Below, piece by piece: positions 11,710 through 13,602 of a stretch of 64,000 nucleotides of DNA. Positions within the stretch are counted from its first letter, which is position 1. The number at the start of each line of letters is the position of its first letter. The stretch is from assembly GCF_044647545.1 (NCBI RefSeq), contig NZ_CP172818.1. The stretch is one strand, 5' to 3'. Source of the stretch: Escherichia coli (GTDB taxonomy: Bacteria; Pseudomonadota; Gammaproteobacteria; Enterobacterales; Enterobacteriaceae). A program made the position numbers and the translations under genes. Under the pieces are notes generated by a model that saw nothing but the letters and a program-made list of their open reading frames with translations, was not told the origin of the DNA and ran no database searches.

Positions 11710-13602
11710 TTAAACCTCAATCTCTGCCATGTCGCCTTTCTCTTGCAACCAGTTGCGGCGATCTTCCGAGCGTTTCTTCGCCAGCAGCATATCCATCATC
11801 GCGTCCGTACGCTGATCGTCTTCATCATCGATAGTCAACTGCACCAGACGGCGAGTGTTCGGATCAAGCGTGGTTTCGCGCAATTGCATCGGGTTCATTT
11901 CCCCGAGACCTTTAAAACGCTGGACGTTTGGCTTGCCTTTCTTGCGTTTTAATTGCTCAAGTACGCCCTCTTTCTCTTCTTCCGTCAGCGCGTAATAAAC
12001 CTCTTTCCCGAGGTCAATACGGTAGAGCGGTGGCAGTGCAACGTAAACGTGACCGTGTTTCACCAATGCGCGGAAGTGTTTTACAAACAAAGCGCAGAGC
12101 AGCGTGGCAATGTGCAGACCATCGGAGTCAGCATCCGCCAGGATACAGATCTTGCCGTAACGAAGCTGGCTCAAATCGTCGCTGTCAGGATCGATACCGA
12201 TAGCTACCGAAATATCGTGCACTTCCTGCGCAGCCAGCACTTCGTCGGAAGAGACTTCCCAGGTGTTAAGGATCTTACCTTTCAGTGGCATGATCGCCTG
12301 ATATTCGCGATCGCGCGCCTGCTTGGCAGATCCGCCTGCGGAGTCACCTTCCACAAGGAACAGCTCGGTACGGTTAAGATCCTGCGCGGTACAGTCAGCC
12401 AGTTTGCCAGGCAGCGCCGGGCCGCTGGTTAGCTTTTTACGCACCACTTTTTTAGCCGCACGCATACGACGCTGGGCGCTGGAAATCGCCATCTCTGCCA
12501 ACAGCTCCGCCGCCTGAACGTTCTGGTTCAGCCACAGGATGAAGGCATCTTTCACCACGCCCGAAACGAATGCCGCACACTGACGCGAAGAGAGACGTTC
12601 TTTGGTCTGCCCGGCAAACTGCGGATCCTGCATTTTTACTGACAGCACATAGGCGCAGCGATCCCAGATATCTTCCGCCGACAGCTTTACACCGCGCGGC
12701 AGAATGTTGCGATATTCACAGAACTCACGCATCGCGTCCAGCAGGCCCTGACGCAGGCCATTAACGTGCGTACCACCCTGCATCGTTGGGATCAGGTTGA
12801 CGTAGCTTTCGGTCAGCAGTTCACCGCCTTCCGGCAGCCACAGTAGCGCCCAGTCCACCGCTTCAGTATCGCCAGCGAAATTACCGATAAACGGTTTTTC
12901 TGGCAGCGTCGGTAAACCGTTTACCGCTTCCGCCAGGTAATCATTCAGACCGTCCTGATAGCACCAGCGCTGTTCGGTGTTGTTGATCTCATCTTTAAAG
13001 GTGATCTCAACACCTGGGCACAGTACCGCTTTGGCTTTCAGCACATGCGTCAGGCGTGAAACAGAAAAACGCGGGCTGTCAAAGAAGGCTTCATCCGGCC
13101 AGAAGTGCACGCTGGTACCGGTATTGCGTTTACCACAGGTGCCGACAACCTGTAAATCTTGCACCTTTTCGCCATTTTCAAAGGCGATGTTATAAACCTG
13201 ACCATCGCGGCGTACGTTAACTTCTACGCGCTTCGACAGGGCGTTAACCACCGAAATCCCCACGCCATGCAGGCCGCCAGAGAACTGGTAATTTTTGTTA
13301 GAGAATTTACCGCCCGCGTGCAGACGGCAAAGAATCAGTTCAACCGCCGGTACACCCTCTTCCGGGTGAATATCCACCGGCATCCCACGACCATCGTCAA
13401 TAACTTCTAACGACTGGTCAGCATGTAAGATTACGTCCACGCGTTTTGCGTGACCCGCCAGTGCTTCATCGACACTGTTATCAATAACTTCTTGCCCCAA
13501 ATGGTTAGGGCGAGTGGTATCGGTATACATCCCCGGACGGCGGCGAACCGGCTCAAGCCCGGTGAGTACCTCAATGGCATCAGCGTTATAAGTTTGCGTC
13601 AT
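11710..13602 (-). CDS. parE: DNA topoisomerase IV subunit B
   Basis: 630-aa ORF; GHKL ATPase and TOPRIM (EGDSAGG) motifs; residue 458 (codon 12229-12231, GCG) is Ala. Confidence 0.95.

Follow-up and report, generated by a model that had tools for sequence, protein, structure and literature searches.

The window analysed here, a stretch of 64,000 nucleotides of Escherichia coli DNA, carries the genes for both subunits of DNA topoisomerase IV, parC and parE, on its minus strand. The two genes and the codons discussed below lie as follows:

2808..5066, minus strand: parC, DNA topoisomerase IV subunit A, 752 amino acids, scoring 1423.4 bits against the NCBIfam model TIGR01062 (parC_Gneg)
3642..3644, minus strand: parC codon 475, GAA (Glu), where K-12 has GAT (Asp); a background polymorphism, D475E
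4827..4829, minus strand: parC codon 80, ATT (Ile), where K-12 has AGC and the phylogroup-F relative WB61 has AGT (Ser); the classical S80I substitution of the QRDR
11710..13602, minus strand: parE, DNA topoisomerase IV subunit B, 630 amino acids, with the ATG at 13602 and the stop at 11710
12229..12231, minus strand: parE codon 458, GCG (Ala), where K-12 MG1655 has TCG (Ser)
13087..13089, minus strand: parE codon 172, GCC (Ala), where K-12 has ACC (Thr); a lineage polymorphism with no link to resistance

The open reading frame at 11710..13602 is a full-length ParE of the Gram-negative type. In a profile search its product scored 1247.6 bits against NCBIfam TIGR01055 (parE_Gneg), above the cutoff of 723.35 and covering 624 of the 625 profile positions, and 620.5 bits against the gyrB model TIGR01059, under the cutoff of 882. 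The Pfam order recorded for an identical protein is HATPase_c, DNA_gyraseB, Toprim, DNA_gyraseB_C; the insertion of E. coli GyrB is missing, and ParE has 630 amino acids versus 804 in GyrB. The neighbourhood, with yqiA-cpdA-yqiB-nudF-tolC upstream and parC nearby, is syntenic with K-12. The exact RefSeq counterpart of the protein is WP_022646138.1, the ST648-type ParE with T172A and S458A.

Counting codons from 13602, residues 455-460 of this ParE read V L A A Q E, and the change at codon 458 is T1372G on the coding strand (window base 12231). The sequence-only reading had assigned the GCG at 12229-12231 to residue 458 and had given VLASQE as the wild-type motif. Both statements are borne out: the Ala codon is read directly from the minus-strand open reading frame, and codon 458 of parE in K-12 MG1655 (b3030) is TCG, encoding Ser. 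The pairwise alignment of the two genes is ungapped, with 1893 of 1893 nucleotides and 630 of 630 residues compared; since K-12 parE has the same length and no indel precedes codon 458, the residue count is not offset. The two genes differ at 69 nucleotides (96.35% identity), and just two of these differences change the protein, giving T172A and S458A. With only 2 of the 69 nonsynonymous, ParE is under strong purifying selection. L416 (CTT), D420, L445, E460, D475 and I529 (ATT) are all wild type, as had been stated earlier for Leu416 and Ile529. Ala458 is the catalogued ParE S458A substitution of the QRDR, a correct but ordinary observation. The substitution, its clonal distribution and its location in the QRDR are all already known from the literature and from lists of resistance mutations; S458A was reportedly first described by Sorlozano et al. 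in 2007 (J Clin Microbiol 45:2740).

The partner subunit differs from K-12 ParC at two residues, S80I and D475E. That ParC S80I accompanies the ParE change had also been noticed from the sequence, and the codon agrees, with ATT at position 80 against AGC in K-12. Over its whole length the window parC is 100% identical in DNA to that of FDAARGOS_497, an ST648-type genome, and the ParE proteins of the two show 0 amino-acid differences. Over nucleotides 1-1889 the parE of FDAARGOS_497 does not differ from the genes of MS6198 and strain 'ST648', and over the same stretch the window parE is identical to that of many complete genomes, including these two. Both MS6198 and strain 'ST648' are documented as phylogroup F, ST648 (PMC8281228). 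The isolates whose genomes match the window in parE and parC came from humans, dogs, cats, wastewater and a dolphin.

The likeness to FDAARGOS_497 extends beyond the topoisomerase genes. Within window positions 1-25000 the shared blocks are 99.9-100% identical, and positions 25001-64000 are colinear at 99.695% identity. Gene content in this region is not the same as in ST648 genomes; three islands are absent from the window. None of the seven MLST loci (adk, fumC, gyrB, icd, mdh, purA, recA) lies in the part of the window that was compared with annotated genomes (ygiQ to ygjK/fadH), and gyrA lies outside the window, roughly 0.8 Mb away in K-12. The earlier suggestion that S458A together with ParC S80I marks a drug-selected lineage is reasonable, given that parC is identical, and parE identical over nucleotides 1-1889, to the genes of ST648 genomes. 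ST648, an international high-risk clone, typically carries this combination, and we infer from these sequences that the source strain is probably fluoroquinolone-resistant; high-level resistance would be likely if its gyrA carries S83L/D87N, as in ST648. The observation is of use solely for practical annotation, in that it marks the window as derived or constructed from an E. coli background selected by fluoroquinolones.

Three further features were seen in the same comparison. About 80 of the roughly 120 differing columns (73 mismatches plus gaps) between window positions 25001-64000 and FDAARGOS_497 fall within 46939-48628 (nfeF-nfeR), a cluster that resembles a patch acquired by recombination. 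At window positions 6875-6919 the toxin-antitoxin genes mqsR and mqsA, located between ygiS and ygiV in K-12, are missing, as they are in ST648 genomes. Odd sequences at 34465-34500 and 48614-48627, which differ from K-12, were considered as artefacts and rejected: the ST648 genome has the same sequences except for small indels, namely an 18-nucleotide deletion at 34471-34510 and a 1-nucleotide indel at 48628.

The first 25 kb of the window, in which parE lies, show structural oddities that bear on whether the Ala codon can be trusted:

289-349, junction between ygiQ and ftsP: TRAP-transporter/dehydrogenase island of 7.7 kb missing relative to ST648 genomes
11660-11714, junction between ygiN and parE: siderophore ABC/TonB-receptor island of 7.3 kb missing relative to ST648 genomes
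19788-19955, junction between ygiC and ygiD: assT-dsbL-dsbI island of 3.7 kb missing relative to ST648 genomes
19790-19952, between ygiC and ygiD: A/C-rich low-complexity filler of 163 nucleotides (97 A, 42 C, 18 T, 6 G)
23408-23415: replaced 3' end of ubiK (23179..), about 64 nucleotides shorter than in ST648 and giving an altered UbiK of 94 amino acids

At the first two junctions (289-349 and 11660-11714) the window has the empty-site sequence of the K-12 type, and the last 4 nucleotides of parE are likewise of the K-12 type, GTT TAA instead of GTC TGA. The TRAP-transporter island is apparently also absent from six top-ranked close relatives, in which the match spans are 7.7 kb shorter. The ygiN-parE junction of the window was found at more than 97.6% identity in no complete E. 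coli genome searched, and in all 27 of the 27 public contigs examined that encode exactly this ParE the TonB-receptor island lies downstream of the gene. The filler at 19790-19952 ends in a degraded copy of a K-12 hairpin, occurs in 0 of the 5,426 complete E. coli genomes and has the look of an artefact. The ubiK replacement sits where K-12 has ygiL-yqiGHI, and an exact-protein look-up across 153 billion gene positions found the window's UbiK variant in no public assembly. Reference-guided assembly on K-12 was considered as the cause of the missing islands and is unsatisfactory, because the K-12-specific mqsRA and ygiL-yqiGHI are absent as well; it is further undercut by the filler, which occurs in no genome. 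Taken together, the oddities point to an artefact of assembly, consensus or construction in the first 25 kb, or else to an unsampled relative as the source of this part.

These features, the three absent islands together with a filler and a shortened ubiK unmatched in any other genome or assembly, could prompt the suspicion that the Ala codon itself arose by faulty assembly, consensus calling or editing. We give this suspicion next to no chance. Codon 458 lies inside an 8,074-nucleotide block that is 100.000% identical to FDAARGOS_497, the same parE (nucleotides 1-1889) is present in many independent complete genomes, and public assemblies contain the exact protein in 4,878 indexed blocks. The structural oddities leave the verdict on codon 458 unchanged.

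The origin of Ala458 can be followed through sibling alleles that have kept Ser. When nucleotide 1372 of the window parE is reverted to T, the gene is identical at 1889 of 1889 nucleotides to the Ser458 allele of 25 complete genomes. One of these 25, WB61 (from a roadside hawk), has Ser80 in ParC (AGT) and carries T172A as well as ParC D475E; as WB61 shares T172A and D475E despite having Ser458 and Ser80, both of these are lineage polymorphisms. By the same comparison, S458A (T1372G) and S80I (AGT to ATT) are single-step derived changes on the phylogroup-F (ST648-type) background. Between the window and WB61, parE differs by 1 nucleotide within nucleotides 1-1889, plus 2 in the K-12-type last 4 nucleotides, and parC differs by 25 nucleotides. 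The near-identity of parE next to a parC that is 25 nucleotides apart indicates that recombination in one of the lineages had a breakpoint between parE and parC.

The same substitution is found on two other parE backgrounds. T1372G is the sole nucleotide difference between K-12 parE and the parE of strains '167', '405' and AR435. Strain 190693 has GCG at codon 458 on a third background, 41 nucleotides from that of the window and 55 from the K-12 type. Two SNPs beside the codon, at nucleotides 1308 and 1353, are private to this background, and the parE of strain 190693 with T restored is identical at 1893 of 1893 nucleotides to at least 15 complete genomes. There are thus three Ser/Ala sibling pairs, each split by T1372G alone across the compared positions, and this is convergence: the same transversion arose independently on at least three parE backgrounds (ST648/phylogroup F, the K-12 type and the third type). 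By our own arithmetic, the chance that a random single difference in the second pair would fall on the same site with the same base is about 1/(1893x3) = 1.8e-4. Given the SNPs at nucleotides 1308 and 1353, a gene-conversion tract that spread codon 458 between backgrounds would have to be shorter than about 20-60 nucleotides. The three clean pairs make a tidy case of convergent selection on one nucleotide.

ParC S80I is convergent in the same way, to judge from its codons. In the window it is ATT, from the phylogroup-F AGT, and in K-12-type backgrounds, including strains '167', '405' and AR435, it is ATC, derived from AGC.

Strain '405' (NZ_CM132948) and strain 103 (NZ_CP020495) have genomes of 5.1-5.2 Mb and the ParE accession of the K-12-type S458A allele, the parE of strain 103 having been assigned by its RefSeq protein accession alone. 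In strain '405' the whole 36-kb parC-parE region is K-12-like, with mqsRA and yqiGHI present and no islands. If strains '405' and 103 belong to ST405/phylogroup D, recombination may have brought in the whole region that carries the resistance changes.

The sibling pairs also bear on whether Ala458 does anything at all. Neutral markers do travel with this lineage, T172A and ParC D475E being true examples, and all the Ala458 genomes on the ST648-type background could be one clone, so that Ala458 might have been carried along without effect by successful resistant clones. Such hitchhiking is highly improbable and is strongly disfavoured by the presence of T1372G on three backgrounds, each with a Ser sibling that is otherwise identical at the compared positions. 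The strong purifying selection evident from the 2 nonsynonymous changes among 69 differences and the location of site 458 within the QRDR also argue against it.

Ala458 is widespread in the species. Allele counts were made with 55-mers centred on nucleotide 1372, in which every 28-nucleotide seed must include the SNP. Of 5,426 complete E. coli genomes, at least 441 (8.1%) matched the GCG version and 2,826 the TCG version; the 8.1% is a lower bound because 2,159 genomes were matched by neither 55-mer owing to nearby synonymous differences. A 61-nucleotide query, which matched 3,345 genomes, was dropped for these counts, being confounded by the synonymous site at nucleotide 1401 together with the 28-nucleotide seed rule. 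The description of S458A as a recurrent substitution in resistant E. coli is well founded, with at least 441 of the 5,426 genomes, at least three independent backgrounds and several sequence types in the literature. In a Swiss survey all S458A isolates had a ciprofloxacin MIC >32 mg/L, and nearly all carried the gyrA S83L/D87 double mutation and parC S80I (PMC3995870). Among carbapenem-resistant urinary isolates S458A was found in 72.8% of those studied, in ST410, ST405, ST167, ST448, ST457, ST2011 (with T172A, as in the window) and others (PMC10638923). For ST648, gyrA S83L/D87N, parC S80I and parE S458A have been reported together (PMC9685555).

Residue 458 belongs to the QRDR of the TOPRIM domain, which is homologous to the QRDR of GyrB. 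In this region ParE residue n aligns with GyrB residue n+6, and Ala458 corresponds to GyrB Ser464 (VLAAQEV versus MLSSQEV). In all solved Gram-negative topoisomerase IV cleavage cores, those of Klebsiella pneumoniae (5EIX, 6WAA/7LHZ and 9KGT) and Acinetobacter baumannii (2XKJ/2XKK), the equivalent position is Ser within the motif VLASQEV. Over residues 398-509, position 458 is the sole difference between the window ParE and that of K. pneumoniae, and a few more follow after 509. In a modelling study, S458A is assigned to the TOPRIM domain (residues 412-525) and counted among the canonical mutations for fluoroquinolone resistance (PMC12992559). In the K. pneumoniae structure the C7 methylpiperazine of levofloxacin points to ParE Gln460/Glu461, and the drug makes no direct hydrogen bonds to ParE (PMC4822561). 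Ser458 adjoins, on the N-terminal side, Gln459/Glu460, the E. coli counterparts of these two residues.

A mechanism can be proposed on this anatomy. Quinolones intercalate at the cleaved DNA gate, where a water-Mg2+ bridge links them to ParC Ser80/Glu84 (GyrA Ser83/Asp87) and the C7 substituent faces the B subunit. Loss of the Ser458 hydroxyl may slightly alter the C7-facing surface of ParE, or the positioning of Gln459/Glu460, and the altered surface would weaken stabilisation of the topoisomerase IV cleavage complex by the drug. Gyrase is the primary quinolone target in E. coli, and mutations in topoisomerase IV do not raise the MIC until gyrase has become resistant. For this reason S458A would be of benefit only late, once GyrA S83L/D87N and ParC S80I are in place; it would then add a further increment to the MIC, and it would presumably cost little in fitness. 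A late gain at low cost would explain its fixation in the high-level-resistant clones ST648, ST410, ST167 and ST405. That S458A weakens drug action on topoisomerase IV we infer from general knowledge of quinolones and from the anatomy of the residue. We put at about 0.8 the probability that Ala458 is the known drug-selected ParE S458A resistance substitution, acting on the complex of topoisomerase IV with the drug.

Several of the same facts, however, fit a different role, in which S458A restores the efficiency or fitness of a topoisomerase IV that carries ParC S80I and drug binding is not lowered. The change from Ser to Ala is conservative and affects a residue conserved in all the solved Gram-negative cores; position 458 belongs to the TOPRIM/DNA-gate region of ParE, to which the drug is seen to make no direct hydrogen bonds; and S458A nearly always occurs together with ParC S80I. 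Among the papers covered by a literature search there were no isogenic (allelic-replacement) MIC data and no enzymological data on S458A, and estimates of how far, and even in which direction, S458A shifts the MIC consequently rest on association data that are clonally confounded. Compensation, if true, would explain the conservative change, the absent drug contact and the repeated origin in high-risk clones. We nevertheless consider it unlikely, if not negligibly so. The homologous GyrB Ser464 and the residues adjacent to it in ParE and GyrB are recognised resistance sites (gyrB S464F, for example), and some ST410 and ST405 isolates have been reported with S458A and without parC S80I (PMC10638923). 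A resistance substitution acting on the drug complex is the reading that we prefer to compensation.

The resistance substitution so understood can be set beside several known systems. One of them comprises the residues that face C7, Glu474/Glu475 of Streptococcus pneumoniae ParE and Gln460/Glu461 of K. pneumoniae ParE (PDB 5EIX). Ser458 directly precedes the E. coli equivalents of these residues and has not itself been described as a drug contact. The substitutions at Ser464 of GyrB (S464F/Y in the gyrase B QRDR of Enterobacterales) affect the homologous residue; they differ in belonging to the paralogous enzyme, gyrase, and in that the usual replacements there are bulky aromatics, whereas ParE 458 has Ala. 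GyrB S464F has been found in a fluoroquinolone-resistant E. coli isolate of ST361 (PMC10638923). Other changes in the E. coli ParE QRDR, L416F, I444F, L445H, E460D/K, D475E, I529L and S458T, lie in the same TOPRIM region as S458A and, like it, act as late steps once gyrA and parC are mutated (listed in PMC10638923). The window ParE differs from these in being wild type at 416, 420, 445, 460, 475 and 529. Among these changes, ST131 typically carries I529L and ST1193 L416F. The closest likeness is to S458A of the resistant clones ST648, ST410, ST167 and ST405, with the same gene, the same residue, the same change from TCG to GCG and the same partner, ParC S80I. At the level of the substitution there is no difference from these clones; it is in genomic context, with its three missing islands, that the window differs from all sequenced ST648 genomes.
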